Assembly (NCBI GenBank): GCA_001885315.1
Contig: MLPZ01000002.1
Coordinates: 75,365-139,364, forward strand
Length of the DNA: 64,000 nt
DNA from: Treponema sp. CETP13
Lineage (GTDB): Bacteria > Spirochaetota > Spirochaetia > Treponematales > Treponemataceae
Reading direction: 5' to 3'
In this document: piece by piece, positions 6,930 through 37,647 of the stretch
How positions within the stretch are numbered: position 1 is the stretch's first letter
Layout of the letters: each line of letters starts with the position of its first letter
Notes under the pieces: generated by a model
Databases searched by the model: none
What the model was told of the DNA's origin: nothing
What the model saw: only the letters and a program-made list of their open reading frames with translations
Made by a program: the position numbers and the translations under genes

Positions 6930-6972
6930 AAAACTTACTTGTTTTACCGTCATTATTATTAATGAGTCAATG

Positions 6973-7226: not shown

Positions 7227-7384
7227 AGATAAGGTGAGATTATCTTATACTTTTTAGGCGATCCTTGTCAATGGCAATAAATAAAAAAAATAGCAAAAAA
7301 AAAGAAAATGAAAAATTTATAAATAAACTAGTTCTGAGAGTTTTTATGGTGTATAATTTATGTATTATTTTTTAGGAGAAATTG

Positions 7385-18191: not shown

Positions 18192-19946
18192 ATGAATATA
18201 AAACCAAAAGATAAAAACATTAAGGCATTACTTATTTCAGGTAGTCAATTTTCTATTCCAAGATTCCAAAGAGATTATTCTTGGGATAAAAAAAATTATC
18301 AAGAATTTATTGATGATATGCTTGATTGTTTACGTATATGTGATGGTAAATTGGAAACAAAAAGTTATTTTTTAGGAACAATGCTTTTTATTGGTGATTA
18401 TTCAGATTCAGTAAATAAAGACAAATCTATTTATGTTGTGGATGGACAACAACGAATTACGACCATTACTATTTTGTTTTCTGCTTTGTCAGATAGATTT
18501 AGAAGTATAGGTGAGGAAAAACTGAGTGAGCAAGTTTTTCGATACATTATGACACAAGATGATGATGGAGAAGATATAAGGGTATTAGAAAGTAAGACAC
18601 ACTATCCATACTTTTCGTTTTACATTCAAGATAGAGAAAAACTTGATGCACAAGACCCAACTACAGAAGAAGAAGAATGCATTAGAGATTCTTTTAAATA
18701 TTTATATGATAGGTTAGATGATAAAAAATTAAAACTTTATTTAAAGAAAAAACTGGGAAGTGATGAAGTTGATCAGTTAAAATATGTAGATATACTTAAA
18801 ACTTTAAGAGATCAGATATTGGGCACTACTTTTATTTCTATTTCAACGCCTGATAAAAAAAACGCTAACATGATCTTTGAAATACTCAATGCAAAAGGAA
18901 AACGATTGTCTCATGTTGATTTAATAAAAAATAAAATCTTTGAAGTATTAGAAAAGACAGAACCTGCTGATTATGCAGAAGAAAAATGGGCTGATATTAA
19001 GAAAATTTTAGTTTCTCGAGATGAAACGGTTGGGTTAGCAACTTATTACAGGCATTTTTGGATATCAACATATACAAAATCTTCAGCTACTAAACTTTAT
19101 GATAATTTTCAAAAGGCAATAAAACCTAAAACAAAGGAAAGATATAAGCAGTTCCTTTGTGAAATCGAAGAAAATGCAGAAAACTATATTAAAATACTTA
19201 ATCCGAGACGAGAAGACTATGAAAATAGAAAAGAATACTTTTGGTTAGTACAAAGTTTAAATGTTTTGATGAATTATTTTAATATTGTTCAGGTTAGAAT
19301 TGCTTTACTAGCATTATTTAATATCAAAAAAAAGGAGTATATTTCTACTAAAAAATTTAAAGAAACAATACTGTTTTTAGAAAATTTTCATTTTGCATAT
19401 AATGCAGTTGTTTCGGGGAGGACAAATAAATTTGAAGGCATATATGCAAAATTTGCTATTCAAGTAAGAAGATGTAAAGACAAATCTGAATCACAAAAAA
19501 CAATCGATCAATTGCTGATTCAACCATTAAATACATTATTTCCAGGTTTTGATCAATTTTCGAAAGGATTTGTTTCCTTGAATTACACTAGAAAAACTAA
19601 ACTCAATAATGTAAAAACTAAATATGCAATACAAAAATTAAACTCTTTTTATGATAATAAGGATGTTTTTTCTGATAATGGAAGCATTGAACATATTGTC
19701 CCAGAATCAACAGGTGAGAACTCATTCAATATAGGCAACTTAATAATATTAGAAGAAACGCTAAATGAAGAAGCTGGTGATCAAAGCTATCTTCAAAAGA
19801 AGAAAGTGTATTTAAAATCTTCTTATTCTTGGATTAATAAATTCGTGGAAGCCAATGAAGTATGGACCAAGGCTAATATCGAACAAAGAGCAATTGATCT
19901 TTCTAAGATTTACTATCGTGATATTTTAGGTAAAACAATAAGTTAA
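18192..19946 (+). CDS. GmrSD-like DUF262/DUF1524 protein (putative type IV modification-dependent restriction enzyme)
   Basis: N-terminal ParB/DUF262 motifs (..IPRFQRDYSW.., ..VVDGQQRITT..). C-terminal His-Me/HNH-like DUF1524 region (..GSIEHIVPES..NIGNLIILEETLNEEAGD..). SD aaagggag upstream. Confidence 0.7.
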   Translation: MNIKPKDKNIKALLISGSQFSIPRFQRDYSWDKKNYQEFIDDMLDCLRICDGKLETKSYFLGTMLFIGDYSDSVNKDKSIYVVDGQQRITTITILFSALSDRFRSIGEEKLSEQVFRYIMTQDDDGEDIRVLESKTHYPYFSFYIQDREKLDAQDPTTEEEECIRDSFKYLYDRLDDKKLKLYLKKKLGSDEVDQLKYVDILKTLRDQILGTTFISISTPDKKNANMIFEILNAKGKRLSHVDLIKNKIFEVLEKTEPADYAEEKWADIKKILVSRDETVGLATYYRHFWISTYTKSSATKLYDNFQKAIKPKTKERYKQFLCEIEENAENYIKILNPRREDYENRKEYFWLVQSLNVLMNYFNIVQVRIALLALFNIKKKEYISTKKFKETILFLENFHFAYNAVVSGRTNKFEGIYAKFAIQVRRCKDKSESQKTIDQLLIQPLNTLFPGFDQFSKGFVSLNYTRKTKLNNVKTKYAIQKLNSFYDNKDVFSDNGSIEHIVPESTGENSFNIGNLIILEETLNEEAGDQSYLQKKKVYLKSSYSWINKFVEANEVWTKANIEQRAIDLSKIYYRDILGKTIS

Positions 19947-20190
19947 ATAAATGTCAAAATTTACGTCAAGATCTGTTTATAAAAGATTTGTTATAGTAAT
20001 TTTATTTTATAATATAAAATGAAATTTTAGGGTAACATAGTAAATGGTACACACATTAGATTTTAAATATTAAAAATATGAACTTACAAAAGATTGAATT
20101 CTTTCCAAAATGGAAACAGTTCAATTCAAGATACCTATTTAGGCTGAATATTTTTTAAAAAACTTGTTTTTTATGTTTTAGCCATATTTA

Positions 20191-20206
20191 TTGACAAATA
20201 TGTCAA
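20191..20206. promoter_or_regulatory. Perfect palindrome TTGACAAATATGTCAA (-35-like hexamer within a 6-4-6 inverted repeat), upstream of the ATPase pair
   Basis: Read directly, 83 nt upstream of ATG 20289. Promoter or operator function is inferred only. Confidence 0.3.
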
Positions 20207-20288
20207 AAATTATTAATTAGCTATGGTAAAATACAGCTATTGGTAGTACATTGTATATATCTTGTATATATATTTGAGAGGTATAAAG

Positions 20289-21458
20289 ATGTTGTTGTCA
20301 TACAGTGCTAAAAACTTTTATTGTTTTAAAGAAGGCCTTGAAGTTTCGTTTAAGTTAGGTAAATCATGTCCTCAAGAAATATCAAATAATAAAGATTTTA
20401 CAAATGTTCTCTGCGTAAAAGGTGCAAATGGGGCAGGTAAATCTAATGCCTTAAAAGTTCTTGATTTTCTTAGATTGTTTTGTCGTGATTCTTTTTTGTT
20501 AAAGCCAGATGCACCAATAGGCTATAAAACTTTTTTTAATAATACTAATCCATCAGAGTTTTGTGTGGAATTTTCAGTCGATGGCATTGTATATCAATAT
20601 GATTTATCGATAACAAAAAATGAAATACTCAGTGAAAAGTTGTCAAAGACAGTTAAGCGCTCAAAAACGCTATTTACACGAACTAAAAATAAAGTAGAGA
20701 CAATTACAGAGTTTGATGAACTTAAAAAAATTAAATTGAGATCTAATGCTTCAATTATTAGTACGGCGCATCAGTATGAAATAAAAGAGCTTGCTGTTGT
20801 ATATTCTTTTTTTGAAAAAATAATACCGTTAAATACTACGCTTCCAAAATTGATATATAATACAAATGATATTATTAGAAATTCACAACCTTTTGCTGAG
20901 TTGCATTCAATTAATCAAAATTATTATGATTATCCCGAAGCGTTTGCTTTTACAAAAGATATCTTAAAAAAATTTGATTTAGGAATTAAAGATATAAAGA
21001 TTAAAAAAGTTCAAATAGATAAAGACAATATTGAATATAATCCATATTTTGTTCATGAAAATAATAAAAAAGAGTATGAGCTTCCTTTTGAATTAGAATC
21101 TTCTGGGACAAGAAGTTTATATAATCAACTATTTTTTTATTATGGGGTACTTGAAGTGGGGGGTGTTTTTGTTTTAGACGAGTTTGATGTTAATTTGCAT
21201 CCAGATATATTGCCGTTATTAATAGACTTATTTACAAATAAAGAAACAAATCCTCATAATGCACAATTATTATTTACAACACATAATTCTGAAATCCTTA
21301 ATACATTGGGTAAATACCGCACGGTATTAGTCAACAAAGAAGCAAATGAAAGTTATTTATATCGTCTAGATGAACTTCCCGGCGATATAATTAGAAATGA
21401 TCGTCCTCTAGAACCGGTCTATCGGAGTGGTAAAATTGGAGGTGTCCCTAAAGTATGA
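20289..21458 (+). CDS. AAA15/AAA21-type (ABC/SMC-like, COG1106-like) ATPase, defence-associated
   Basis: Walker A GANGAGKSN, signature-like ESSGTRSLY, Walker B VFVLDEFDVNLHPD, TTHNSE, and C-terminal ..YRSGKIGGVPKV. Start taken at ATG 20289 after gagagg. Confidence 0.7.
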   Translation: MLLSYSAKNFYCFKEGLEVSFKLGKSCPQEISNNKDFTNVLCVKGANGAGKSNALKVLDFLRLFCRDSFLLKPDAPIGYKTFFNNTNPSEFCVEFSVDGIVYQYDLSITKNEILSEKLSKTVKRSKTLFTRTKNKVETITEFDELKKIKLRSNASIISTAHQYEIKELAVVYSFFEKIIPLNTTLPKLIYNTNDIIRNSQPFAELHSINQNYYDYPEAFAFTKDILKKFDLGIKDIKIKKVQIDKDNIEYNPYFVHENNKKEYELPFELESSGTRSLYNQLFFYYGVLEVGGVFVLDEFDVNLHPDILPLLIDLFTNKETNPHNAQLLFTTHNSEILNTLGKYRTVLVNKEANESYLYRLDELPGDIIRNDRPLEPVYRSGKIGGVPKV

Positions 21459-21967
21459 ACAAGTTTTCTAATAAGAGAAAAGAAAGTTTTTTAGATTCAA
21501 TACCGACTGAAAGTCTCGATAACAAGACAAACGATATTGTTTGCAGGTGTAAATTTAATTTTTCATATTTTGATAATTCTCAAGGAGTTGGTCAAGATTT
21601 TAAAGATTGGACACAGGAAGAATTGGCAAAACTTTTAGATAAGCTGAAAAATTATTGCAAATTTTCATTAGAACACTGGAAAAATGAAAAAATAGGTTCT
21701 GGAAAACATAGAAATGGTATTTTAGTTGAATATGGCTCTTTTCCCGTAAAAACTGATTTTAAGTTTCCTTTACATATTCCGCATCAAGTTATTTGGGGGC
21801 GATTTAGACTAGAGCAAGCAACACGTTTAGTAGGATTTACAATTCCCAAACAATATGAAGATTTGTTTTGTAATAATAAAAAATTAAAGTATCGCTTTGA
21901 TTGCAATACCTTTTATGTTGTATTTCTTGATAAAAATCATAGGTTCTGGAAATCAAGTAACAAGTAA
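21455..21967 (+). CDS. Hypothetical 170-aa protein, translationally coupled to the ATPase (candidate effector)
   Basis: ATGA overlap with the upstream stop. No family recognised. The C-terminal pattern VIWGRFRLEQATRLVGF...NTFYVVFLDKNHRFW is reminiscent of RelE/ParE-superfamily strand motifs (inference). Confidence 0.5.
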   Translation: MNKFSNKRKESFLDSIPTESLDNKTNDIVCRCKFNFSYFDNSQGVGQDFKDWTQEELAKLLDKLKNYCKFSLEHWKNEKIGSGKHRNGILVEYGSFPVKTDFKFPLHIPHQVIWGRFRLEQATRLVGFTIPKQYEDLFCNNKKLKYRFDCNTFYVVFLDKNHRFWKSSNK

Positions 21968-22020
21968 AACTCTATGTAAGGCCTTTTAACCCCCTCGAGT
22001 TCGAAGGGGTTAAAAAACGT

Positions 22021-22341
22021 ATTCAATCTAAGCTACGTTAATCATAAATAGGAGCTTCAGTATCAATGCACTGTAACATTTGCTCAGCTACTTTTTTCCC
22101 TGACCGGATCATTCCGCCAAATACAGGTCCCATTCTGTAAGCTCCGGCTACGCCATTTGCAGCCATTCCACTAACAAAAAGACGAGGATAAATTTCGCAT
22201 GTATTTTCAGCCGTGGCAAGTTCGGCTTTTTTACATTTTAAAGATCTCTCGCCCATAACCTTACCAGTCTTTGTATTAAGTGTTATTTCGTTTTTTCGGG
22301 TTAACACATTTACAATTTCAGATGGATGGCCGGTAGCATCT
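22021..22341. repeat. 321-bp direct repeat, copy 1 (3' end of intact thi4 plus 17 nt downstream)
   Basis: Aligns without indels to 42894-43214, with about 19 mismatches by manual alignment. Confidence 0.9.
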
Positions 22342-22832
22342 AAGACACAACGACTTATAGCCATAAGAGGATCTACATGCATATGCTCTTTATGTACAGG
22401 AGCCCAATTTAAAACAACTCCACCAATACTTTCGTCTTTTGCAAAAATAATATCTTCGATACTTATCATATTAAGAAGTGTTACCCCAGCTTCTACAGCC
22501 TTAGAAATAAGAGTAGATGCAAGGTAAACCGAATCGATAGTATAAAAATTGTCTTTTACCTCAGGAAGTTCTACTCCTATTTCTGATAAAATAGTGGCCG
22601 CTTCTTCTTGAACCATAACGTCATTAAAAAACATACCACCACCCCAAATTCCACCACCAGGGGCAAGTTCGCGCTCAAACATTACCACTTTTTTTCCAGC
22701 TTTAGCTAAAAAATATCCAGCAACAAGCCCAGATGGTCCTGAACCTACAATAATTGCATCTGAGTCCAACGCACTCTTTAATTTTGTGTGATAAGAATCT
22801 AAAATTCCTTTTGAAACATTGTATTCTAACAT
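22038..22832 (-). CDS. thi4: Thiazole synthase, Thi4 family
   Basis: Dinucleotide-binding IVGSGPSGLVAGYFLA, then ..ERELAPGGGIWGGGMFFN.. and ..LDATGHPSEIV... Preceded by a TPP riboswitch. Confidence 0.85.
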   Translation of the reverse strand: MLEYNVSKGILDSYHTKLKSALDSDAIIVGSGPSGLVAGYFLAKAGKKVVMFERELAPGGGIWGGGMFFNDVMVQEEAATILSEIGVELPEVKDNFYTIDSVYLASTLISKAVEAGVTLLNMISIEDIIFAKDESIGGVVLNWAPVHKEHMHVDPLMAISRCVLDATGHPSEIVNVLTRKNEITLNTKTGKVMGERSLKCKKAELATAENTCEIYPRLFVSGMAANGVAGAYRMGPVFGGMIRSGKKVAEQMLQCIDTEAPIYD

Positions 22833-22939
22833 ATGTTCCTCCTAAGTTTTATGAACAGGAGAACCACCAATTTAGAGATTTGTCTTTTAGAATATAGAGT
22901 TTGAGGTATTGTTACGATTTTTTGTTTACATAAATACAT

Positions 22940-23020
22940 GAAAACCGCCTCCCTGCGCTGGCATTATCCAGATCAGGTTCAAAGGGTATATTCTCAGCTC
23001 GTTAGGAGCACCCCTGTTCA
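22940..23020 (-). promoter_or_regulatory. TPP (THI-box) riboswitch upstream of thi4
   Basis: The minus strand reads acaggggtgctcctaacgagctgagaatataccctttgaacctgatctggataatgccagcgcagggaggcgg. This contains the conserved CUGAGA, ACCUGAUCUGGAUAAUGCCAGCG core. Confidence 0.85.
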
Positions 23021-23092
23021 ATTATTTATAAATAGTAATGATATTAAAAAACATTTACAAGTGTTTTTAAGTTTTTTTTCGCTTGCATCTTT

Positions 23093-23230
23093 GGCAAATC
23101 CCCTCTTCGAGGGTCGCGCTATTACAACCTCCGCTTCCGCTTCGAAAGCCTCGTGCCTAAAGTCACTCGGGTTTTTGCTAACGCAAGTTTCCATATCGCT
23201 ATTTGTACGAGCGGTAACGGGGGGAGGGGG
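23093..23230 (+). repeat. Unclassified ~140-nt intergenic repeat, copy B
   Basis: Same orientation and about 90% identity to 17836-17978. Ends in G6AG5 followed by A8. Confidence 0.8.
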
Positions 23231-23286
23231 AAAAAAAATTTGATTATTTCAAAATTAAGTAGTAACTTAACAGGTGAGGAGTATTA

Positions 23287-24192
23287 ATGGAAAAAGAGTT
23301 TAACCAATTTATAGAGAAGATTACTTTAACAACGAAACAAAAAGATGAAGCTAAAACAAAGTATACAGGGGTATGTAAAAAAGTTCATGATTATTATTAT
23401 GATTGTAATTATGATGGATCAACTAAATTTTTATTTGGATCGTACAAATTAAAAACAAATATTAGACCGATTACAAAAGATCAAGATGTTGATGTTTTGA
23501 TTAAATTACCACAAGAAACTTTTGAAAAATTTAATAATTATCAAAGTAATGGACAATCAGCGTTATTAGAAGAAGTCAAAAGCATATTAAAAGAAAAATA
23601 TACGACAACTGATAAAATAAAAAGTTGGGGAAAAGTTATACTGCTTCAATTTGAAGATAGTACCCATAATATTGAATTATTACCAGCATTTGAACAGGAT
23701 GATAATAGTTTTAAAATCCCAAATACCGAAAATGGTGGAAGTTGGGAAGTATTTAACCCTAGAGCTCAAATTGATGCTTTTAATGAAAGTAATAAAAATA
23801 GTGATGGGTTGACCCGTAAGATATGTAAAATGGTTAAAAAATGGCGAAACTTTACTACTTCTGTTTCTATAAAGTCATGTTCTATTCAAGATTGGGCAAT
23901 CGATTTCCTTGCTAGTAATAAAGTAGATCAGTTAGAAATAGAAGAAATATTACAAAAATATTTCGAATTCATAAGATCAAAATGTTCTTCAGATAATAAA
24001 TCCTATGTTGAAACTGTATTAAAACGTATTGAAAAAGCAATTAATTATATTGATGATGGAGAGGAAAACGAAGCTTCTCAAGAATTTAGAAAAATTTTTG
24101 GTAATGAATTCCCTTTAGTAGAAGATAGTTCAAAAACAAATAGTTTTGATAATAATATATTTTCTACTCCTCGACCATGGCTAGAAAATTAA
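23287..24192 (+). CDS. SMODS / minimal CD-NTase-like nucleotidyltransferase
   Basis: Pol-beta NTase motif FGSYKLKTNIRPITKDQDVDVLIKL (GS...DxD) plus a downstream acidic strand NIELLPAF. 301 aa. First gene of a tightly packed three-gene cassette. Confidence 0.65.
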   Translation: MEKEFNQFIEKITLTTKQKDEAKTKYTGVCKKVHDYYYDCNYDGSTKFLFGSYKLKTNIRPITKDQDVDVLIKLPQETFEKFNNYQSNGQSALLEEVKSILKEKYTTTDKIKSWGKVILLQFEDSTHNIELLPAFEQDDNSFKIPNTENGGSWEVFNPRAQIDAFNESNKNSDGLTRKICKMVKKWRNFTTSVSIKSCSIQDWAIDFLASNKVDQLEIEEILQKYFEFIRSKCSSDNKSYVETVLKRIEKAINYIDDGEENEASQEFRKIFGNEFPLVEDSSKTNSFDNNIFSTPRPWLEN

Positions 24193-24767
24193 TGATTTTA
24201 AGACCTTCTAAGATAGACTTAGATTGGTTAAATAATAATCAACCTAAGTTATGTTTTAATAATAAAAATATAATTGAAGGAATATATAAATTAAATAGTA
24301 GTTATAAGGGTGTCGCTTTAAAAGGTAATTACAAAATCAAGATAGATCTTTTAGTTGATAATATAGATTTAATTCCTACTGTTTATTTATATCCCGAAAA
24401 TCTACATAGGATTCTTAATAAATCTGATCTAAAAATAAGTGATTTACATATAAATTCTGATTTTTCTCTCTGCTTGTGTATTCCTGAACTTGCGAAAGAC
24501 TATTTGCCTCATGGATATAATTTAAAAGAATTTATAATCAATTTAGTAAATCCGTTTTTCTATTGGATACGGTCTTATTGTTTAAATAAAAAAAAACCAT
24601 GGAATGATTATTCTCATGGTTTCCAAGGATACAAAGAAGCTTTTGGCGTTGATGTTTTTGAAACGAAGAAATCAGTTAATAATCAAGAGTTATATAATTG
24701 TATTAAAAAAAAATTTGGTAGTGAATATCTAAGTAAACAAGCTTTTCGAAAAATAATAAGAGGTTAA
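24177..24767 (+). CDS. Prokaryotic E2 (UBC-fold)-like protein
   Basis: ..IPTVYLYPENL...DLHINSDFSLCLCIPEL.. resembles the E2 HPN-x(n)-C-L catalytic motif. The start overlaps the NTase gene; alternative ATG at 24192 (TAATG). Confidence 0.5.
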   Translation: MARKLMILRPSKIDLDWLNNNQPKLCFNNKNIIEGIYKLNSSYKGVALKGNYKIKIDLLVDNIDLIPTVYLYPENLHRILNKSDLKISDLHINSDFSLCLCIPELAKDYLPHGYNLKEFIINLVNPFFYWIRSYCLNKKKPWNDYSHGFQGYKEAFGVDVFETKKSVNNQELYNCIKKKFGSEYLSKQAFRKIIRG

Positions 24768-24768
24768 T

Positions 24769-25350
24769 ATGATTGATTTTACGAATTTATCAGTTTTAAG
24801 ACAAAATTTTGCAAATGTAGTATATACCATGAAGATTCATGAAATATGTAAAGAAAAAGCTGCTATAGGTAAGGTTATATATGCTATTGTAAATATTATT
24901 TTAATTGGTTTAACATTTGTAATTATTACGTTTGGTAATATTTTTTTTAATATCGGGGTCTGTAATATTTTTTCTTCTTTGTTTTCATTAAGTGCGTTAA
25001 TTTTGTTTATATGTACTTTAGTATTCAATCCTAATAATAAGTATAAACAACATGAAACGACAGCTAATAAACTATTACTAATAAGAGAAAAATATATAAA
25101 TCTTATGGCGGATATTGTTACTGAAAATATATCTTCAGATTTAATCAAGCAAAAAAGTGATGGTTTAGTAAATGAAGTAGAAAAAATCTATGCAGAAGCT
25201 CCATATCGATCACGACGATGTTATAAAGAAGCACAAAGACGATTAAGAGGTAAAAATGTCGAAGGAGAGGATTTTACTACCTCAGATAAAGAAATAGATC
25301 GTTTTTTGCCGAGTGAATTAAAATATTCTACATTAAAAGATAATAAATAA
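24769..25350 (+). CDS. SLATT-like two-TM membrane effector
   Basis: N-terminal helix (..VVYTMKIHEICKEKAA..), then two TM helices (VIYAIVNIILIGLTFVIITF, IFSSLFSLSALILFICTLVF) and a helical C-terminal region. Starts 1 nt after the upstream stop. Confidence 0.55.
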   Translation: MIDFTNLSVLRQNFANVVYTMKIHEICKEKAAIGKVIYAIVNIILIGLTFVIITFGNIFFNIGVCNIFSSLFSLSALILFICTLVFNPNNKYKQHETTANKLLLIREKYINLMADIVTENISSDLIKQKSDGLVNEVEKIYAEAPYRSRRCYKEAQRRLRGKNVEGEDFTTSDKEIDRFLPSELKYSTLKDNK

Positions 25351-25456
25351 ATTTAAGTATTGGCTCTATCAAGAATGGCAAGAAACCTGAAAATGGTTTA
25401 ATATAGTAGGTATTCCACAGCTACTAAGAAATTACCAAATACTGTAAGGTAGAGCA

Positions 25457-28429
25457 ATGACAAAAGAACGACAAATTGAAGATAATTTTATTAAAAAGTT
25501 ACAAGAATTAAAATATGTGTATAGAGATGATATTTGTGATTTAGATTCTTTAAACCAAAACTTTCGTGAGAAATTTAATGCATTAAATAAAGTTAACTTT
25601 ACAGATTCTGAATTTGCACGGTTGTTAGATGATATTGTTAGTCCTGATGTCTTTAAATCTGCAAAAAAACTTCGAGAGCGCAACTCTTTTGAGCGAGAAG
25701 ATGGCACGCCTTTAAATTATACATTAGTAAACACAAAAGACTGGTGTAAAAATAGCTTTGAGTGTGTAAATCAGTTGCGAATAAATACTGAAAACAGTAA
25801 TCAAAGATATGATGTTATTCTTTTAATTAATGGTATACCGGTTGTTCAAGTAGAATTAAAAGCTTTAGCTATTAGCCCTCGTAGAGCAATGCAGCAAATA
25901 GTTGAATATAAAAATGAGCGGGGAAACGGTTATGGGCGAACACTTTTGTGCTTTATGCAAATATTTGTTGTAAGTAATCGCAGTAACACCTGGTATTTTG
26001 CAAATAATAACACTAAATATTTTAGTTTTGATGCGGATGAGCATTTTTTACCATTATATGAATTTGCAGATAAAGATAATAAAAAAATAACGCATCTTGA
26101 TGATTTTTCTGATAACTTTTTGCAAAAGTGCACATTAGGTGAAATGATAAGTCGTTATATGGTTCTTGTTGAGTGTGAGCAAAAGCTAATGATGATGCGT
26201 CCATATCAAATTTATGCTGTAAAAGCTATTGTTGATTGCATTCATCAAAATCGTGGCAACGGATATATTTGGCATACAACCGGAAGTGGTAAAACACTGA
26301 CTTCATTTAAAGCTTCAACATTGCTTAAAGATAATGACGATATTAAAAAATGTCTTTTTGTAGTTGATCGAAAAGATCTTGATAGACAAACACGACAAGA
26401 ATTTAACAAATTTCAAAAAGGCTGTGTAGAAGAAAATACAAATACCGAAACACTTGTAGAAAGACTTTTATCTACTAATTATGCAGATAAAGTTATTGTA
26501 ACAACAATTCAAAAATTAGGGATTGCTTTAGATGGCACAAATAAAAAAAATTATAAAGAACGCTTAGAACCACTACGAAAGAGCAGAGTTGTTTTTATTT
26601 TTGATGAATGTCATCGCTCTCAATTTGGAAAAAATAATCTTGCAATAAAAGAGTTTTTTCCCAATTCGCAGTTGTTTGGATTTACAGGAACGCCAATTTT
26701 TGAAGAAAATGCGAGTCAAGTACAAATAGAGGGACAGGAAAAGTCTTATAGAACTACAGAGGATATTTTCCAAAAATTGCTCCATTCATATACAATAACA
26801 AATGCTATAGAAGACAGAAATGTTCTTCGGTTTCATATTGAATATTATAAACCAGAAGGCAAATTGATACCAAAACCGGGAGAGTCATTAAGTCAAGAAG
26901 CCATTGTAAATGCTATTTTAGAAAAACATTATAAAGCTACCGCAAATCGAGAGTTTAATGCGTTGTTTGCAACTTCGTCTATAAATCAAGCAATCGAATA
27001 TTATAAATTATTTAAACTAATTCAAACTAAGAAATTAGAAGAGAATCCTAAATATGTGCTTTTAAACATTGCCTGCGTATTTTCTCCGCCTGCTGATGGC
27101 AACAAAGATATTTTGCAGATACAAGAAGATCTACTGCAAGAAAAGTTAGATAATCAAGAAAAACCAGAAGAAAAAAAACAGGCTCTAAAAGAAATTATCA
27201 GTGATTATAATTTTCAATATGGGACTAATCATGATATTGCTAATTTTGACCTTTATTATCAGGATATTCAAAAACGCATAAAAGATCAGCAATATTCTAA
27301 TTCTGATTATTCTGATAATAAAAAAATAGACATTACAATTGTTGTTGATATGCTTTTAACAGGGTTTGATTCAAAATATCTAAACACAGTCTATGTTGAT
27401 AAGACTCTTAAATACCATGGTTTAATTCAAGCTTTTTCACGGACAAATCGTGTATTAAATGATACAAAACCCTATGGAAATATACTTGATTTTCGCGGTC
27501 AACAAGACGCAGTTAATGAAGCTATAGCTCTGTTTTCTGGTGAAGAAAATAATAGAGAAAAAGAAATTTGGTTAGTTGATCCTGCTCCAGTCATAATTAC
27601 AAAATTAGATGAAGCTGTTTCAAGTTTAAATACATTTATGACATCTCAAGGTCTAAAATGTGCTCCAGAAGAAGTTGCAAATCTTAAAGGAGATGAATCT
27701 CGGGGGCAATTTGTCAATTTATTTAAAGAAGTTCAACGATTAAAAACACAGATAGATCAATATACAGATTTAACAGAAGATGAAAAAGAGCAAGTTGAAC
27801 AAGTTTTACCGCAAGATGATTTGTATAGTTTTAGGGGTGTGTATTTAGAGACTGCTGCACGACTTAAATTAAAACAAGATACCTCATGGAAAGAAGAAAC
27901 GACGGATATAATTCAGAATCTTGATTTTGAATTTGTTCTTTTTGCTTCAGCCATGATTGATTACGATTATATTATGCAATTAATATCTGAGTATACTCAA
28001 AATACACCAGAAAAACAAAATGTATCACGTGAAGAATTAATAGGTTTAATAGCTTCCGATTCAAAATTTATAGAAGAAAAAGAGAATATTTCAGAATATA
28101 TTGCAACTTTAAAAACAGGCAAGGGGTTGTCCGAAAACGAAATTCGCAATGGTTATGAGCTTTTTAAAGCCAAAAAATATGATGCTGAAATTGCAACCAT
28201 CGCACAAAAGCATAAACTGCAACAAACTGATTTAAAAGCGTTTATTACTGATGTGGTAACGAGATTAATATTTGATGGAGATGCCTTAACCGATTTATTT
28301 GAACCATTAGAATTAGGTTGGAAAGTCCGCTCAAAAGCTGAAGGTGCATTAGTAAAAGATTTATCGCCTTTATTGCACAAAATGGCACATGATAGAGAAA
28401 TCTCAGGATTAAAAGCTTATGAAGAATAG
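25457..28429 (+). CDS. hsdR: Type I restriction enzyme R subunit
   Basis: N-terminal PD-(D/E)xK nuclease (YDVILLINGIPVVQVELK), helicase motif I HTTGSGKT, motif II FDECHRSQ, and ..LLTGFDS.. and ..QAFSRTNR.. motifs. 990 aa. Confidence 0.9.
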   Translation: MTKERQIEDNFIKKLQELKYVYRDDICDLDSLNQNFREKFNALNKVNFTDSEFARLLDDIVSPDVFKSAKKLRERNSFEREDGTPLNYTLVNTKDWCKNSFECVNQLRINTENSNQRYDVILLINGIPVVQVELKALAISPRRAMQQIVEYKNERGNGYGRTLLCFMQIFVVSNRSNTWYFANNNTKYFSFDADEHFLPLYEFADKDNKKITHLDDFSDNFLQKCTLGEMISRYMVLVECEQKLMMMRPYQIYAVKAIVDCIHQNRGNGYIWHTTGSGKTLTSFKASTLLKDNDDIKKCLFVVDRKDLDRQTRQEFNKFQKGCVEENTNTETLVERLLSTNYADKVIVTTIQKLGIALDGTNKKNYKERLEPLRKSRVVFIFDECHRSQFGKNNLAIKEFFPNSQLFGFTGTPIFEENASQVQIEGQEKSYRTTEDIFQKLLHSYTITNAIEDRNVLRFHIEYYKPEGKLIPKPGESLSQEAIVNAILEKHYKATANREFNALFATSSINQAIEYYKLFKLIQTKKLEENPKYVLLNIACVFSPPADGNKDILQIQEDLLQEKLDNQEKPEEKKQALKEIISDYNFQYGTNHDIANFDLYYQDIQKRIKDQQYSNSDYSDNKKIDITIVVDMLLTGFDSKYLNTVYVDKTLKYHGLIQAFSRTNRVLNDTKPYGNILDFRGQQDAVNEAIALFSGEENNREKEIWLVDPAPVIITKLDEAVSSLNTFMTSQGLKCAPEEVANLKGDESRGQFVNLFKEVQRLKTQIDQYTDLTEDEKEQVEQVLPQDDLYSFRGVYLETAARLKLKQDTSWKEETTDIIQNLDFEFVLFASAMIDYDYIMQLISEYTQNTPEKQNVSREELIGLIASDSKFIEEKENISEYIATLKTGKGLSENEIRNGYELFKAKKYDAEIATIAQKHKLQQTDLKAFITDVVTRLIFDGDALTDLFEPLELGWKVRSKAEGALVKDLSPLLHKMAHDREISGLKAYEE

Positions 28430-29699
28430 TAAAACTAAAACAGCAGTCCCAAAATTACGATTCCCCGAGTTTCAAGATACAGAGGCTTGGAAATTTAAAG
28501 AATTATTAAAAATGAGTAATCATTTAGTTGATAAAGTCGGTGATGCAATATACCCCACTGTAAGTATTGCTGCTGGATTTGGCTTTGTAACTCAAAAAGA
28601 AAGATTTGGACGGGATATTTCAGGAAAACAATATAAAAATTATATTTTATTAAAAAAAGGTGATTTTGCTTATAATAAAGGTAATTCAAAGAAATACCCT
28701 CAAGGTTGTATTTATGAATTAAATAAATTTGATGTTGTAGCAGCCCCCAATGCTTTTATATGTTTTCGCTTAAAAAAATATTATATAGCAAGTTTTTATA
28801 AACAATATTTCCAAGCTAATTATCATGCTGAACAATTAAAAAAATATATTACTAGTGGAGCAAGAAGTGATGGTTTATTAAATATCAATCAAAATAATTT
28901 TTTTTCAATAATTTTACCTTCTCCAAAAAAAGAAGAGCAACAAAAAATAGCTGATTGCCTTTCTTCTATTGATGAACTTATTACTTTACATTCAAAAAAG
29001 CTTGATACGTTAAAAGACTATAAAAAAGGACTCTTACAACAACTTTTCCCTGTAGAGGGCGAAAGTATTCCGAAGTTAAGATTTCCTGAATTTGAGAATG
29101 ATGGAGAATGGAATCAATTTGCTCTTGGCGAGATTACATCGGTTTCTGCAGGAGGGACCCCTCTTAGTTTTAAAAGTGAATATTGGGATGGTAATATTCC
29201 ATGGATGAATTCAGGAGATTTAAATAAAAAGAAAATTTTTAGTGTTTTAAAAAAAATAACAGAGTTGGGATTAAAAAATTCTAGTACAAAATATATTCCT
29301 ACTAAATGTATATTAGTTGGTTTAGCGGGGCAGGGTAAAACAAGAGGCACTGTTGCTATCAATTATATAGAATTATGTACTAATCAATCAGTTGGAGCTA
29401 TTTATCCAAATACACAAATTTTTGTTAGTGAGTTTTTGTATTATAAAATGGATTCTATGTATAAGGTTTTAAGAAATATATCAAAAGTTGAAGGTGGCAG
29501 AGGGGGTTTAAATCTGCAAATGATTAAGGCTCTCCAAATATATTTACCTAAAATAAAAGAACAACAAAAGGTAGCTGATTGTTTAACTTCCTTGGATGAG
29601 CTGATAACTGCGCAATCGAAAAAAATTGAAACACTAAAGCAACACAAAAAAGGTTTATTGCAACAGTTGTTTCCGTCTCAACAGGAAGTAATTAGATGA
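28419..29699 (+). CDS. hsdS: Type I restriction enzyme specificity subunit (two TRDs)
   Basis: Duplicated conserved regions: PKLRFPEF at the start of each half, and QQK[IV]ADCL[ST]S[IL]DELIT..SKK..TLK..KKGLLQQLFP at the centre and C-terminus. Overlaps the hsdR end by 11 nt. Confidence 0.9.
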   Translation: MKNSKTKTAVPKLRFPEFQDTEAWKFKELLKMSNHLVDKVGDAIYPTVSIAAGFGFVTQKERFGRDISGKQYKNYILLKKGDFAYNKGNSKKYPQGCIYELNKFDVVAAPNAFICFRLKKYYIASFYKQYFQANYHAEQLKKYITSGARSDGLLNINQNNFFSIILPSPKKEEQQKIADCLSSIDELITLHSKKLDTLKDYKKGLLQQLFPVEGESIPKLRFPEFENDGEWNQFALGEITSVSAGGTPLSFKSEYWDGNIPWMNSGDLNKKKIFSVLKKITELGLKNSSTKYIPTKCILVGLAGQGKTRGTVAINYIELCTNQSVGAIYPNTQIFVSEFLYYKMDSMYKVLRNISKVEGGRGGLNLQMIKALQIYLPKIKEQQKVADCLTSLDELITAQSKKIETLKQHKKGLLQQLFPSQQEVIR

Positions 29700-30808
29700 G
29701 TAAAGCACTTTCTTATAAATCACTAGAAAAAGTTGTCACAAAATTACGAGGTGATCTTAATCCTGAGGATCCTAAATCTAAAAAATTTGTGTTACTTTAT
29801 GCTTATAATGGAACTGGTAAAACACGACTTTCTATGACTTTTAAAGATAGAGGCAGAGAGCATGACAATAGAGATACTTTATATTTTAATGCATATACAG
29901 AAGATCTTTTTTATTGGGATAATGACCTTGAAAATGATACAACACGAGTACTTAAAATAAATTCTAATTCAAAATTTTTTAATGGCTTTAAAGAACATGC
30001 ATTAGAAGAGAAAATTTATAAATATTTTAATCGCTATAGTGATTTACAATTTAAAATAGATTATAAATTGTGGTATATTACTTTTTCAAAAGGGGAAGCT
30101 ACGGATATAAAAATTTCACGTGGTGAAGAAAATATTTTTATTTGGTGTATCTTTCTTACTATCTGTGAACTTGTTATTGATGGGGATGAATTGTATGCAT
30201 GGGTAAAATATATTTATATAGATGATCCTATTTCTTCACTTGATGATAATAATGCAATATCGGTTGCTTCTGATTTATCAAATTTACTAAAAAATGAAAA
30301 TAATAAAGTAAAAACAGTTATTTCATCACATCATGCTCTCTTTTTTAACGTAATGTGTAATGAATTACGTAAGCAAAACTCTAAACAATATTTCCTTTAT
30401 CATGATAAAGATTTAGAAAAATATAAACTTTCTACGACCGGAGATACACCTTTTTTCTATCATTTGGCGATGTTGGCAGAATTAAAAAAAGCAACAGACG
30501 CAGGTCGTTTATATACATATCATTTTAATATACTAAGAAATATTTTTGATAAAACATCTTCTTTTTTTGGATATAAAAACTTTTCGGCATGTATTGAAGA
30601 TATGGATGATGAAGAATTATATGCGCGTGCTTTAAATGTGTTGAGCCATGGTAATTATTCAATCTATGAACCAAAAGAAATGGGAATGGATTCAAAAGAT
30701 TTGTTTAGAAATATATTATATGCATTTCTTAATAAATATGATTTTAATTTAACAGGTTTTATACATGAAGAAGATAAGGAAACAATAAAAAATGGCAATG
30801 ACAGATAA
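29696..30808 (+). CDS. PrrC-like anticodon nuclease candidate (AAA_13-type NTPase + C-terminal nuclease region) embedded in the R-M operon
   Basis: Walker A YNGTGKTRLS, ABC-signature-like ISRGEENIF, Walker B YIYIDDPISSLD. The C-terminus has LRNIFD...(about 32 aa)...LSHGN, i.e. an Arg/acidic(+4)/His arrangement like the PrrC ACNase triad. ATGA overlap with hsdS, and a 17-nt overlap with hsdM. Confidence 0.6.
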   Translation: MSKALSYKSLEKVVTKLRGDLNPEDPKSKKFVLLYAYNGTGKTRLSMTFKDRGREHDNRDTLYFNAYTEDLFYWDNDLENDTTRVLKINSNSKFFNGFKEHALEEKIYKYFNRYSDLQFKIDYKLWYITFSKGEATDIKISRGEENIFIWCIFLTICELVIDGDELYAWVKYIYIDDPISSLDDNNAISVASDLSNLLKNENNKVKTVISSHHALFFNVMCNELRKQNSKQYFLYHDKDLEKYKLSTTGDTPFFYHLAMLAELKKATDAGRLYTYHFNILRNIFDKTSSFFGYKNFSACIEDMDDEELYARALNVLSHGNYSIYEPKEMGMDSKDLFRNILYAFLNKYDFNLTGFIHEEDKETIKNGNDR

Positions 30809-32396
30809 GACACAACTTGGTAAAGGTTTATGGGCAATTGCAAATGATTTACGAGGTTCAATGAATCCTGATGATTTTCGTGATTATATGTTCTCTTTCC
30901 TATTTTTGAGATATCTCTCTGATAATTATAAAAACGCAGCAAAAAAAGAACTTGGGTCTGATTATCCTCAAACTGAAAAATCACCGTTGCTTGTTTGGTA
31001 TAATAATAATGAAGAAGATATACCTGCGTTTGAAAAGCAAATGCGACGTAAAACTCATTATATTATTAAACCTGCTTATATGTGGGATACTATTTGTGAG
31101 CTTGCAAGAAAACAAGATAAAGAATTACTTAATATACTCGAAAAAGGCTTTAAATATATAGAAAATGAGTCGTTTGATAGTACTTTTCAAGGTCTTTTTT
31201 CTGAAATTAATTTGTCTTCAGAAAAGCTCGGAAAAGATTATGCAGCACGAAACTCAAAATTATGTACTATAATTACTACAATTTCACAAAAGATTTCAGA
31301 ATTATCAACTTCAAGTGATATGTTAGGTGATGCTTACGAGTATCTAATTGGGCAATTTGCAGCAGGTTCAGGTAAAAAAGCAGGTGAGTTTTATACTCCG
31401 CAACAAATATCTACTGTTCTTTCGGAAATTGTAACCCTAGATAGTCAAGATCCAACAACTGGCAAAAAGAAAAGAATAGAAAATGTTTTAGATTTTGCTT
31501 GTGGTTCCGGTTCTCTTTTATTAAATGTACGCAAACAACTTGGTGAACATGGTATTGGAAAAATCTATGGGCAAGAAAAAAACATTACCACGTATAACTT
31601 AGCTAGAATGAATATGCTCTTGCATGGAATTAAAGATTCTGAATTTGAAATCCATCATGGTGATTCATTACTTAACGATTGGAATATTTTGAACGAAATG
31701 AATCCTTCCAAAAAAATGAATTTTGATGCTGTTGTTGCAAATCCACCGTTTAGTTATCGGTGGTCACCAAGTGAAGCTATGGGTGAAGATTTCCGGTTTA
31801 AAGATTATGGTTTAGCACCTAAGTCAGCCGCTGATTTTGCTTTTTTACTACATGGTTTTCATTTCCTGTCTCAATCAGGCACAATGGCTATAATTTTACC
31901 CCATGGGGCATTATTTAGAGGTGGATCGGAAGCAAAAATCCGCACAAAATTATTAGAAGATGGCAATATTGATACTATTATTGGCCTTCCTGCTAATTTG
32001 TTTTATTCAACAGGAATTCCTGTTTGCATTATAGTTCTAAAAAAATGTAAAAAGCCAGATGATATACTTTTTATTGATGCAAGTGGTAAAGGAAACTATG
32101 AAAAAGGTAAAAATCAAAACTTTTTAACTGATGAAAATGTTAAAAAAATTGTTTCTACCTATCAATATCGAAAAGTAGAAAAACGCTATTCTCGTGTAGT
32201 GACATTAGATGAAATTAAAGATAATGAATATAACTTAAATATTTCTCGCTATATCAGTACTGCTGTGCCAGAACCCGAAATAGATCTAGAAGTCGTTCAC
32301 AAAGATTTAGTTGATTTAGAAAAAGAAATTACAGAAGCCACTAAAAAACATAACATATTCTTAAAAGAACTGGGCTTACCTGAATTACCAAAATAG
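30792..32396 (+). CDS. hsdM: Type I R-M N6-adenine DNA methyltransferase subunit
   Basis: N-terminal HsdM_N (..LWAIANDLRG..), AdoMet motif LDFACGSGSLL, catalytic VVANPPFS. 534 aa. Confidence 0.9.
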   Translation: MAMTDKTQLGKGLWAIANDLRGSMNPDDFRDYMFSFLFLRYLSDNYKNAAKKELGSDYPQTEKSPLLVWYNNNEEDIPAFEKQMRRKTHYIIKPAYMWDTICELARKQDKELLNILEKGFKYIENESFDSTFQGLFSEINLSSEKLGKDYAARNSKLCTIITTISQKISELSTSSDMLGDAYEYLIGQFAAGSGKKAGEFYTPQQISTVLSEIVTLDSQDPTTGKKKRIENVLDFACGSGSLLLNVRKQLGEHGIGKIYGQEKNITTYNLARMNMLLHGIKDSEFEIHHGDSLLNDWNILNEMNPSKKMNFDAVVANPPFSYRWSPSEAMGEDFRFKDYGLAPKSAADFAFLLHGFHFLSQSGTMAIILPHGALFRGGSEAKIRTKLLEDGNIDTIIGLPANLFYSTGIPVCIIVLKKCKKPDDILFIDASGKGNYEKGKNQNFLTDENVKKIVSTYQYRKVEKRYSRVVTLDEIKDNEYNLNISRYISTAVPEPEIDLEVVHKDLVDLEKEITEATKKHNIFLKELGLPELPK

Positions 32397-32447
32397 TGTG
32401 CAATTATTATAAATGATTGGGTGTTTCAATAGGCTGGGGGAAAAAGT

Positions 32448-33488
32448 ATGAAAGATGATTTAATACAATCTGAAATTATTCTCTATAAAACTGAAGATGG
32501 CAATGTAAAAGTAGATACTGTTTTACAAAATGAAACCATTTGGCTGACTCAAGCTCAGATGGCCGATCTGTTTGGAGTGAATGTACCTGCTGTTTCTAAA
32601 CATTTAAAAAATATTTTTGACGAAGGGGAACTAAATCGCGAAGCAACTGTTTCCAAAATGGAAACAGTTCAAACTGAAGGTGAACGGATCGTAAATCGCG
32701 AAAAAGATTTTTACAATCTAGATGCAATAATTGCAGTGGGATACCGTGTCAATTCAAAGAGGGCTACTCAGTTTCGTATTTGGGCTACTAATATACTCAA
32801 AGAATACATCATAAAGGGTTTTGCCATGAATGATGAGCGCCTAAAACAGTCTGATCATTGGGATTATTTTGATGAGTGGTTGGAACGTATTCGGGATATT
32901 CGGGCTTCTGAAAAACGGTTTTATCAGAAAATATGTGATATTTATACAACGGCTATTGATTACGATAAACATTCGGATCAGGCGAGACTTTTTTTCAAAA
33001 AAGTTCAAAATAAAATGCTTTTGGCTATTACGGGAAAAACTGCTGCAGAGCTTATTGAAGCGCGGAGTAATGCAAATGTCCCAAATATGGGATTAACATC
33101 TTGGAAAGGTTCTCTTGTACGAAAACAGGATGTAGATGTAGCTAAAAATTATCTTAAAACAGATGAAATAAAAGAGCTTAATGAAATCGTAACCATGTAT
33201 CTTGATTATGCAGAACATCAAGCAAAACGACGAAAAACAATCACAATGGCTCAATGGTCGGATAAGCTGGATGCCTTTTTAGAATTTAATGAACATGAAT
33301 TACTTACAGATGCTGGGAAAATAAGAGCTGAAGTTGCAAAGAAGATTGCTGAAGAGCGTTATGAGGAATTTGATAAAAAACGAAAAACTGAAGAAGCCCA
33401 AAAAGCTGATGAAGATGATTTAAAGGAACTTGAAAAAATAGAAAAAAAACTATTAGAAAATAAGAAAGATGGTAATAAAAGTTTATAA
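32448..33488 (+). CDS. rhuM: RhuM-family protein
   Basis: N-terminus ..IILYKTEDGNVKVDTVLQNETIWLTQAQMADLFGVNVPAVSKHLKNIF.. and ..AVGYRVNSKRATQFRIWAT.. are the typical RhuM signature. Confidence 0.75.
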   Translation: MKDDLIQSEIILYKTEDGNVKVDTVLQNETIWLTQAQMADLFGVNVPAVSKHLKNIFDEGELNREATVSKMETVQTEGERIVNREKDFYNLDAIIAVGYRVNSKRATQFRIWATNILKEYIIKGFAMNDERLKQSDHWDYFDEWLERIRDIRASEKRFYQKICDIYTTAIDYDKHSDQARLFFKKVQNKMLLAITGKTAAELIEARSNANVPNMGLTSWKGSLVRKQDVDVAKNYLKTDEIKELNEIVTMYLDYAEHQAKRRKTITMAQWSDKLDAFLEFNEHELLTDAGKIRAEVAKKIAEERYEEFDKKRKTEEAQKADEDDLKELEKIEKKLLENKKDGNKSL

Positions 33489-33598
33489 TTGGAGTTTTCC
33501 ATGGGTAAAAAATTAACAGTATATTTAATAGATGGATACTATTGTTTACTAAAAGCAATAGCAATGAGGGGTAAGTGACTACAGCTATAATAATGTTG

Positions 33599-36202: not shown

Positions 36203-37647
36203 TTTTTGCTTCCTGGGAATATATTATTGTAACTTAATAAGCGAATTGTATTCCTTCTCCATCTACCTATATGAGTTATTCTACCTTCTCCAGATAAATT
36301 GTTAAAAACAGAACCTTCTCTGTATATATTTAATGTTTTAGTATTTTCTATGCTTTTTTTAACAAGAAGACTTTTAATCTTTTTGTTATCAGAATTAAAA
36401 ACTTGTCCCGAATGACCAGTTTGAAAATAATCAACTAAAATCTTAGTGTAAAAAATAATAATAAAAATAGGAGCTTCGTATTTGCTAGTACTTTTATTAT
36501 TGATGCAATGTTTTAAAAATATGGTTTTATATTCTTCTGTTAAATCTTCAAAAATAATATTTTTTTGAATGCTATTAACAACAAATTTAATATCACTCAT
36601 TTGCTTAGAGTTTCCATATTTTCTCCAAAATTCAGCACGTTCTTTTCCTCTTTTATCACCAGCCACTTGAGTTAAGGAATCGTAAAATTGCGTAATAATA
36701 AATCTATTAAAAATACTTTGATAGTATTTATGGGCAGAATTCATCATTTCGTTATATTTGATTGTTTTATATTTAGAATCAGCTAAGTTCCAAAAGGTTT
36801 TTTCTGTTTTATCTTTGTTTGGAGTTGGGAAAATTTCTTTATCAATCGTGCGTATAAAATCATCATTTTTTAAACTGAAATTATTTGCATAAGATTTAAT
36901 AATAACATGTGCAAAAAATATAATTTTTTCATCATTTGTACTATTATCTATTAATTTCTTATTTGCTTTTAAAAATTCAAGGGTAAAATTATTTAAGCTT
37001 AAAAACCATGATAAAAAAAATGAGTTAAAATAGCGAGTATAAATATATGTTGATGAAATTCCAATTTTTTGTAAAACTGCATATAAGGTTTCAGCTTTTA
37101 CCGAATTAATTTTACCTTCTGTGTATTTTCGGTTTGTATAAAGTTGCAGATCTGAAATATAAAAAGGATCTTTCTTTTTTAATGTACTAAAAACTTTAAA
37201 AACTAGCTGTTGTATAAATTTTTTCGGATCTTCATAGCTTAAATAGTATCGCATAATTGGAACAGCAATAGTGCTGTAGTCGTGTTTATTAATTGAATCA
37301 AAAAATACGAGTAGTTTTTTTTCGTTCTTTTCTGAATCAAAAGGGGAATTATTAATTTTGATTCGGTGAATATTTGCTATTATTTTTATTAAATTTTGTT
37401 TAGTGAATATGTTTATATTTGATTTAGGGTTTTCGAAGAAAGTTTTAAGTAATTTTTGTAAGTCAAATATTTTTTTTTCTGAAATATTTTCAATAATGTC
37501 ATATTTATTATTAAAAGAATCTAAATATTTTATAAACTCTTTCCAGCTTTTTTCGAGTGGTTCATCTGGCCATATATCATTTAAGGTATTAGTTGTTGTA
37601 CGATTTAATGACATTAAAGCAGAATAAGATTGTATATCAGTATTCAT
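36199..37647 (-). CDS. zorC: Zorya type I ZorC-like protein (EH-signature-like C-terminus)
   Basis: Lies between the MotB-like and SNF2 genes. The C-terminal ..RAEFWRKYG..., ..VDYFQTGHSGQVF.. and ..RITHIGRWRRNTIRLL.. are compatible with the EH-signature domain. Assigned mainly by context. Confidence 0.55.
   Translation of the reverse strand: MNTDIQSYSALMSLNRTTTNTLNDIWPDEPLEKSWKEFIKYLDSFNNKYDIIENISEKKIFDLQKLLKTFFENPKSNINIFTKQNLIKIIANIHRIKINNSPFDSEKNEKKLLVFFDSINKHDYSTIAVPIMRYYLSYEDPKKFIQQLVFKVFSTLKKKDPFYISDLQLYTNRKYTEGKINSVKAETLYAVLQKIGISSTYIYTRYFNSFFLSWFLSLNNFTLEFLKANKKLIDNSTNDEKIIFFAHVIIKSYANNFSLKNDDFIRTIDKEIFPTPNKDKTEKTFWNLADSKYKTIKYNEMMNSAHKYYQSIFNRFIITQFYDSLTQVAGDKRGKERAEFWRKYGNSKQMSDIKFVVNSIQKNIIFEDLTEEYKTIFLKHCINNKSTSKYEAPIFIIIFYTKILVDYFQTGHSGQVFNSDNKKIKSLLVKKSIENTKTLNIYREGSVFNNLSGEGRITHIGRWRRNTIRLLSYNNIFPGSKK

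Follow-up and report, generated by a model that had tools for sequence, protein, structure and literature searches.

The only E2-only system of antiphage signalling based on cyclic oligonucleotides (CBASS) for which we found mechanistic studies in the literature searched is that of Serratia marcescens. For this SmCdnG-SmE2-2TM-SAVED operon, biochemical, cryo-electron microscopy and phage-challenge data are available from two papers (Yan et al., bioRxiv 10.1101/2022.05.25.493364; Xiao et al., PMC12948482). In the cyclase SmCdnG, the residue that follows G406 is cleaved off by SmE2, which links G406 to its own C101 in a thioester and goes on to form an isopeptide bond. SmE2 also drives the assembly of poly-cyclase chains and has protease activity. 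C101, H87 and H152 of SmE2 are needed for immunity, and the two histidines are reported to be conserved only in the E2s of E2-only CBASS. The cyclase tip Y405-G406-E407 tolerates G406A, while G406V and G406L abolish linkage, and the lysine preferred by SmE2 is dispensable for immunity (all bioRxiv 10.1101/2022.05.25.493364). Cyclases of E2-CBASS recruit their E2 through a C-terminal helix and a three-stranded sheet, and their C-terminal glycine is highly conserved; clade G accounts for 73.65% of them and is typical, not strictly defining (PMC12948482). Here we describe a three-gene locus of Treponema sp. CETP13 (phylum Spirochaetota), at positions 23287-25350 (plus strand) of a 64,000-nucleotide stretch of contig MLPZ01000002.1 (the window), that encodes a nucleotidyltransferase of the cGAS/DncV-like kind (CD-NTase), an E2-like protein and a SLATT_4 protein.

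By operational definition and from its gene content, this cassette is a predicted E2-only ('type II short') CBASS with a membrane-pore effector. Its cyclase ends without a C-terminal glycine, and the lack of this glycine is a feature of the whole cyclase family. The initial annotation of this DNA had considered the pairing of an E2-only regulator with a SLATT pore-like effector to be predicted computationally but experimentally uncharacterised; as far as E2-only regulators in themselves are concerned, the two Serratia papers contradict this view. For the particular combination found here, in which an E2 and a SLATT_4 protein accompany a short, CdnD/B-like cyclase whose tail carries P-x-P-W, we found no characterisation in the literature searched. 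A proposal exists that ubiquitin signalling has a minimal forerunner without E1 in E2-only CBASS. The family described here keeps the catalytic residues of the E2 and drops both the glycine and the docking motif, so that it could serve to test what an E2 minimally needs to recognise and activate its substrate in the absence of an E1, and whether glycine is obligatory.

A CD-NTase, E2-like and SLATT_4 operon

The open reading frame coordinates of the three tightly coupled genes were confirmed: the cyclase at 23287-24192 (301 aa), the stand-alone E2-like regulator at 24177-24767 (196 aa) and the two-transmembrane SLATT_4 effector at 24769-25350 (193 aa), all on the plus strand. A strong Shine-Dalgarno-like sequence, AGGTGAGGAG (23272-23281, plus strand, read from the sequence), precedes the cyclase ATG by 5 nt. 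The cyclase and E2 genes overlap by 16 nt if E2 begins at ATG 24177, and by the 1 nt of a TAATG stop/start if it begins at Met6 (ATG 24192, 191 aa). The latter start is more probable, because the NCBI model (P0001, 191 aa) and the N-termini of the closest homologues agree on it. A gap of 1 nt separates E2 from the SLATT gene, with a Shine-Dalgarno-like AAGAGG just upstream of the SLATT ATG. The packing into three genes joined by an overlap and a 1-nt gap had been read correctly in the initial annotation, as had the lack of E1, JAB and SAVED domains, none of which was found by profile searches of the three proteins and of the genes on either side. Consensus scans of 22800-25600, cassette included, predicted no terminator, and no sigma-70-like promoter above shuffled controls.

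The first gene product was initially described as a SMODS/CD-NTase-like nucleotidyltransferase of 301 aa with GS...DVD...E motifs, and each of our searches agrees. It matches Pfam SMODS (8.2e-31) and the PADLOC Cyclase model PDLC00786 (9.5e-64); the match to NCBIfam CBASS_cyclase_b (9e-31) stays under the cut-off of that equivalog model. The catalytic residues G51-S52, D67-x-D69 and E130 are invariant across 40 homologues (alignment A3). The AlphaFold2 (AF2) model has a CD-NTase fold with a mean predicted local distance difference test score (pLDDT) of 85.7. In Foldseek comparisons the nearest solved structure is Pseudomonas aeruginosa CdnD (PaCdnD), with TM-scores of 0.72-0.74, followed by CdnB enzymes, EcCdnD02 and CdnC, and the clade-G enzyme BdCdnG ranks only 41st (TM-scores 0.60/0.54). 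A family profile run against the sequences of solved structures retrieves PaCdnD at 1.4e-16 and EcCdnD02 at about 1e-12, and found no clade-G structure. By its best sequence and structure matches, then, the cyclase is predicted to be closest to CdnD/CdnB and not to clade G. Its closest homologues are at most 56% identical, and most of them belong to Bacteroidota and to metagenomes of gut and marine origin, which suggests that the cassette may have been acquired horizontally.

For the E2-like protein, neither Pfam, E2 models included, nor NCBIfam gives a match. The Pfam check proposed in the initial annotation succeeds for SMODS and for SLATT_4 (1.4e-31) and gives no match for the middle gene. 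Seven PADLOC models of CBASS E2 or E1-E2 proteins do match, the best E2 model being PDLC00865 at 1.1e-17 and an E1-E2 model reaching 1.6e-9. A word-indexed protein search returned the protein itself only, and an exhaustive HMMER scan collected 240 relatives. H91, C99 and H147 (196-aa numbering) are invariant in an alignment of 116 relatives with a mean column identity of 18%, and they are kept in all 55 operon-paired E2s, whichever tail type the partner cyclase carries. The H-x-N...C-L motif noted at the outset is therefore real, with H91 and C99 both invariant, but the invariant cysteine of 'SLCLC' is the first one, C99; C101 is not invariant.

The AF2 model of this protein (pLDDT 89.1; predicted TM-score 0.85) has an alpha-beta4-alpha topology: helix 12-21, four strands within residues 25-71, and helices thereafter. 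H91-x-N93 and C99 sit in the loop preceding helix 103-109. The best PDB structure matches, about 40 at the top of the ranking, are almost all of the ubiquitin-conjugating (UBC) superfold, namely UFC1, TSG101-UEV (ubiquitin E2 variant) and canonical UBC E2s. The assignment of the middle gene as an E2/UBC-fold protein, made in the initial annotation, is thus supported by PADLOC profiles and by the predicted model. PDB sequence matches of the E2 were set aside as chance matches, together with SecA-type SEC-C peptides that are found through a C-terminal zinc motif of relatives. This SEC-C zinc-binding motif (CxCGS...CH, Pfam PF02810) is present at the C-terminus of about 24 of 63 E2 relatives (alignments A1 and A2; e.g. 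P0125, P0130 and P0132) and absent from the E2 of the window.

The third protein was correctly named SLATT-like with two transmembrane segments. It matches Pfam SLATT_4 (PF18186) over model positions 4-165 of 165, NCBIfam SLATT_4 at 5.8e-27 (94.4 bits against a cut-off of 55) and the PADLOC 2TM Effector model PDLC00696 at 1.1e-40. Hydropathy places its membrane segments at residues ~35-56 and ~64-86; the C-terminal ~107 aa, predicted to be cytoplasmic, are helical and highly charged (21 K/R and 18 D/E). A phmmer search of the PDB matched TPRs of kinesin light chain at E about 1e-3, which we dismissed as compositional or helical noise. Among the effector classes of CBASS, SLATT4 is named as a common one (PMC12480259), and SLATT proteins are thought to oligomerise into membrane-spanning assemblies upon binding of a nucleotide signal (bioRxiv 10.64898/2025.12.03.692087). 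SLATT4 is one of the membrane-protein effector types that jointly form the largest CBASS effector class. The literature searched yielded no study of a SLATT effector by structural or biochemical means, and the cassette in the window could offer a compact model for nucleotide sensing by SLATT_4 proteins.

The three genes form a conserved unit. With the cyclase alignment, 80 metagenome loci were retrieved; the 54 in which the cyclase has ~300 aa and is followed by 1250 nt or more of sequence were scored. In all 54, the E2-like gene is next after the cyclase, and in 50 the SLATT gene follows as the third. The junction between E2 and SLATT is a 4-nt overlap (-4 nt) in 42 of the metagenome loci; by this spacing, the junctions of related loci are of the translationally coupled kind. 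One of the four loci that lack an intact third SLATT gene has it truncated by an integrase insertion. As an example of effector inactivation, a human-gut contig (L038, 4998-6779) has its operon SLATT cut to 105 aa by a tyrosine-integrase gene. Identical gene order and spacing are found in Muricauda sp. SCSIO 64092 (Bacteroidota), beside Cap4-nuclease, AAA/RloB and HicB genes, and on metagenomic contigs beside BREX-like genes and relaxase/MobC genes; the order is conserved across phyla. A scan of genome contigs with the single protein gave one distant locus only (L005). Judged by the source names of the homologues and by the metagenome loci, the cassette family is widespread in Bacteroidota and Spirochaetota of gut and marine metagenomes.

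Two natural variants bear on the role of the E2. In a 499-aa protein from the representative library (P0184), the cyclase family of the window and an E2 domain are fused into a single chain, which could act as a ready-made model of the cyclase-E2 complex. In the linker of this fusion the tail motif has degenerated to ...SPRPI..., with loss of the tryptophan. In six sister loci (L043, L063, L080, L081, L084 and L085), a cyclase of 416-441 aa carries a fused AGS_C domain (Pfam PF18134), the SLATT gene follows directly, and there is no E2. These sister cyclases are about 50% identical to that of the window, and the proteins P0099, P0109 and P0112 share their architecture. Since AGS_C takes the place of both tail and E2 at once, the E2 can be regarded as an exchangeable regulatory module of the cyclase-SLATT pair, and the AGS_C domain and the combination of tail and E2 appear, from these gene arrangements, to be interchangeable regulators. 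More distant cyclases, about 30% identical, stand in two-gene cyclase-SLATT operons on plasmids.

The cyclase tail and its predicted regulation

The cyclase ends in ...TPRPWLEN, with G272 as its last glycine; the initial annotation was right that neither Gly nor Ala closes this end. In the AF2 model, the last secondary-structure element is helix 260-271, no strands occur beyond residue 156, and residues 284-301 have pLDDT values below 50 and are predicted to be disordered. From this we conclude that the ubiquitin-like recruitment motif is missing. The tail past residue ~272 is predicted to be disordered and carries the conserved P295-R-P297-W298, followed by a variable L-E-N. Across the family, the tip is conserved as P-x-P and an aromatic residue. 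Among 117 unique tails of the family, 85 are of this W type and continue with a residue other than glycine, most often S (38), L (15), F (11) or C (10). Y-type tails make up 27 and H-type tails 4; G or A comes next in 26 of the 27 Y-type tails, and Gly or Ala after the aromatic residue is confined to this Y/H-type minority (28 of 117). Whatever the type, at least two residues follow the tip motif in all 116 motif-bearing tails, with a length of 2-12 aa and variable sequence.

The general logic of the cassette, in which a nucleotide signal from the cyclase gates membrane disruption by the SLATT protein and so leads to abortive infection, is very probable from homology and genomic context. Upon phage infection, the CD-NTase would make a cyclic oligonucleotide. 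The SLATT_4 protein would bind it via its charged cytoplasmic region, oligomerise and breach the membrane, which would kill or arrest the cell ahead of phage release. The anatomy of the operon further points to a UBC-fold protein that may regulate the cyclase through its disordered C-terminal tail. In our proposal, C99 would attack a peptide bond near the tip of the tail, the variable end would leave and a cyclase~E2 thioester would form; this could then be transferred to a lysine, either of the E2 itself or of another cyclase molecule, thereby setting cyclase activity. A leaving group is needed, because without an E1 a pre-existing peptide bond is the sole energy source for an acyl-enzyme. 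In the cyclase of the window, W298 or L299 are the candidate acyl residues.

We favour this full reading, CBASS-type abortive infection combined with an E1-independent, Serratia-like transpeptidation by the E2 on the cyclase tail, with moderate confidence. Chemistry of the SmE2 kind is the most likely one because no E1 is present, because the cysteine and both histidines are kept and because at least two residues always lie past P-x-P-W or P-Y-G/A. It is also favoured by the fusion protein, which ties the E2 to the C-terminus of the cyclase, by the replacement of tail and E2 together by AGS_C, and by the Y-G/A subgroup, which keeps the Serratia handle.

Several observations weigh against a Serratia-like reading. 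The UBC matches of the E2-like model reach Foldseek probabilities of up to 1.00, but with TM-scores of 0.41-0.50 and E-values of at least 0.016 only. No solved E2 was reached by single-sequence or family-profile searches of PDB sequences, and the Pfam E2 models remain without a match. H91, C99 and H147 are equated with H87, C101 and H152 of SmE2 by order and spacing only (8 and 48 residues apart in the protein of the window, against 14 and 51 in SmE2). A conserved acceptor lysine near H147 was not found in the alignment of 116 relatives. The helix and three-stranded sheet that recruit SmE2 have no counterpart in the cyclase. Finally, the same chemistry may be impossible, since G406V and G406L abolish linkage in SmCdnG and the corresponding position is occupied here by Trp or Leu.

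Such a bulky residue at the acyl position leaves three possibilities: a different E2 pocket, trimming of the tail only, or binding of the tail only, of which the last is the least likely because the catalytic residues are invariant. The acyl-enzyme may form at a bulky residue of the P-x-P-W tail, Trp298 or the variable one after it, which would amount to a ubiquitin-like transpeptidation or conjugation from a non-glycine donor that is recognised in the absence of a ubiquitin-like fold. We put this forward tentatively. If it is true, the Y-G/A and W-x tails would mark a change of handle during the evolution of a single family; if the E2 of the window simply behaves like SmE2, the locus is one more catalogued CBASS operon.

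Trimming without transfer is an alternative that we consider unlikely. Here the E2-like protein would act only as a cysteine protease that removes the variable residues past P-x-P-W, or it would inhibit the cyclase covalently and reversibly; the cyclase would thereby be primed or restrained, and neither isopeptide bonds nor chains would be made. An invariant cysteine with two histidines resembles a protease-type active site, protease activity has been demonstrated for SmE2, and proteolytic activation of CD-NTases is a known principle (PMC12991175). The bulky residues at the presumed acyl position likewise speak against a ubiquitin-like transfer pocket. The E2 family also has no conserved lysine acceptor, an absence that does not discriminate because the lysine preferred by SmE2 is itself dispensable for immunity. 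Against mere trimming stand the UBC fold with its H-x-N...C motif, which is a transfer scaffold, the Y-G/A minority with its exact Serratia conjugation handle, and the natural cyclase-E2 fusion, which suggests stable association over a one-off cut.

It is less probable still that the E2-like protein works as a non-catalytic, UEV-like adaptor that binds P-x-P-W non-covalently, in the manner of TSG101-UEV and PTAP, and serves as a sensor or clamp of the cyclase. The best fold matches include TSG101-UEV structures, several of which contain a PTAP or PSAP peptide. The tail motif is rich in proline and has no glycine, and a few E2 family members give weak Pfam UEV or RWD matches. UEV domains, however, have no catalytic cysteine, and the invariance of C99, H91 and H147 in the 116 relatives and the 55 operon partners is not expected for a pseudo-enzyme.

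An inverted, Panoptes-like logic appears more remote than either. A constitutively made nucleotide would keep the SLATT pore shut, and its depletion by phage sponges or nucleases would trigger killing. The sign of the effector response is not fixed by sequence, and mCpol-2TMbeta has been shown to pair an inhibitory signal with a 2TM effector; yet Panoptes uses an mCpol synthase and a Cap15-like 2TMbeta effector, not a SLATT protein (PMC12657230). A canonical CD-NTase with a dedicated regulator fits an enzyme that is held off until infection. The remaining idea, of a non-signalling nucleotidyltransferase of the antitoxin-type MNT or KNTase kind that the initial annotation raised, with two neighbours adjacent by chance, has a weak Pfam NTP_transf_2 match (E 0.035) in its favour and is rejected as virtually without likelihood, since the SMODS and PADLOC Cyclase scores are better by many orders of magnitude, the structural neighbours are all CD-NTases, and the gene order recurs in the scored loci and across phyla.

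Genomic surroundings

The CBASS operon lies within an AT-rich defence island of the Treponema metagenome-assembled genome, with a GC content of 0.25-0.31 against 0.39-0.44 in the adjoining his genes. In order, the island holds GmrSD, an AbiLi-like pair, thi4 with a thiamine pyrophosphate (TPP) riboswitch, the CBASS operon, a type I restriction-modification system with PrrC, RhuM and a ZorD-like helicase. The dense part spans 18192-37647 of the window, and the low-GC stretch continues to about 42 kb.

Upstream of the operon are the GmrSD type IV restriction enzyme (18192-19946), the AbiLi-like AAA_21 ATPase (20262-21458) and, overlapping the latter, its 170-aa partner of no known family (21455-21967). 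Between this pair and the operon stands a housekeeping gene, the thiazole synthase gene thi4, with its TPP riboswitch at 22933-23025 (71 bits), both within 22038-23025 on the minus strand; a second TPP riboswitch is located at 49058-49163 on the plus strand. A locally GC-rich non-coding segment, 23075-23235, ending in GGGGGGAGGGGGAAAAAAAA, is situated upstream of the cyclase start, on the side of the thi4 riboswitch that faces the operon. For an RNA element in this segment, we found no Rfam match at E<=10, and its folding is no better than that of shuffled sequences (z -1.2 and -1.4 for the two strands).

Downstream of the operon, a type I restriction-modification system, with hsdR also present, comprises hsdS (28419-29699) and hsdM (30792-32396), and a PrrC-type anticodon nuclease gene (29696-30808; PADLOC PrrC 1.8e-138) is embedded between them. 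The order hsdS-PrrC-hsdM corresponds to the classic layout of prr loci, where the nuclease is held in check by the restriction-modification complex. It is followed by RhuM (32448-33488), a ZorD-like SNF2 helicase (33599-36202, minus strand; PADLOC ZorD 2.6e-174) and a gene for a 481-aa protein without assigned family (36199-37647, minus strand). Elsewhere in the window, four tRNA-Ser genes and one tRNA-Arg gene are clustered directly beside the gene of the small signal recognition particle RNA (6484-6582), the whole cluster occupying 6484-7227 on the minus strand.

Comparison with known systems

SLATT proteins with two transmembrane segments also act outside CBASS, in type VII Thoeris (ThsH) and in association with defence-associated reverse transcriptases (DRT). 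The signal synthase there is a TIR protein making cyclic ADP-ribose (cADPR) or a reverse transcriptase, and the SLATT proteins belong to another subfamily than that of the window. Closer to the cassette is the type I CBASS on plasmid p1 of Microcystis aeruginosa (L086), with a cyclase of the same superfamily (~30% identity) and a SLATT gene directly downstream. Unlike the cassette, this type I pair and the SMODS-AGS_C sister loci with SLATT have no E2 gene.

Canonical type II CBASS, represented by Vibrio cholerae DncV and by Enterobacter cloacae CdnD02-Cap2 (PDB 7TO3), combines a Cap2 E1-E2 protein with the Cap3 JAB isopeptidase. By anatomical analogy, a UBC-like domain would act on a disordered CD-NTase tail in both cases, and EcCdnD02 is among the closer relatives of the cyclase in the window. 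In contrast to type II, the operon and its neighbours contain neither an E1 adenylation domain nor a JAB isopeptidase, a C-terminal Gly or Ala for conjugation is missing from the cyclase, and the E2 has an H-x-N motif that the E2 domain of Cap2 lacks.

With the Serratia E2-CBASS, the cassette shares a three-gene operon of CD-NTase, stand-alone UBC-fold E2 of ~18-22 kDa and membrane effector, and neither system has an E1 or JAB. In both E2s, the catalytic cysteine is flanked by two conserved histidines, and in both cyclases a conserved tip is followed by one or more removable residues; the Y-G/A minority of the family matches the SmCdnG tip Y405-G406-E407. The cyclases differ in size and type, 301 aa and CdnD/CdnB-like in the window against 407 aa and clade G for SmCdnG, and the tip here reads P-R-P-W and then L-E-N, with no Gly or Ala. 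The effector is a SLATT_4 protein without a SAVED sensor domain in place of 2TM-SAVED, and the two E2 families are too divergent to be connected by hidden Markov models. Because each of the three genes is matched by a PADLOC model, for CBASS cyclase, E2 or 2TM effector, the architecture as such is not new. The cassette does depart from the sole characterised E2-CBASS in two of its central features, the conserved C-terminal glycine and the ubiquitin-like recruitment motif.

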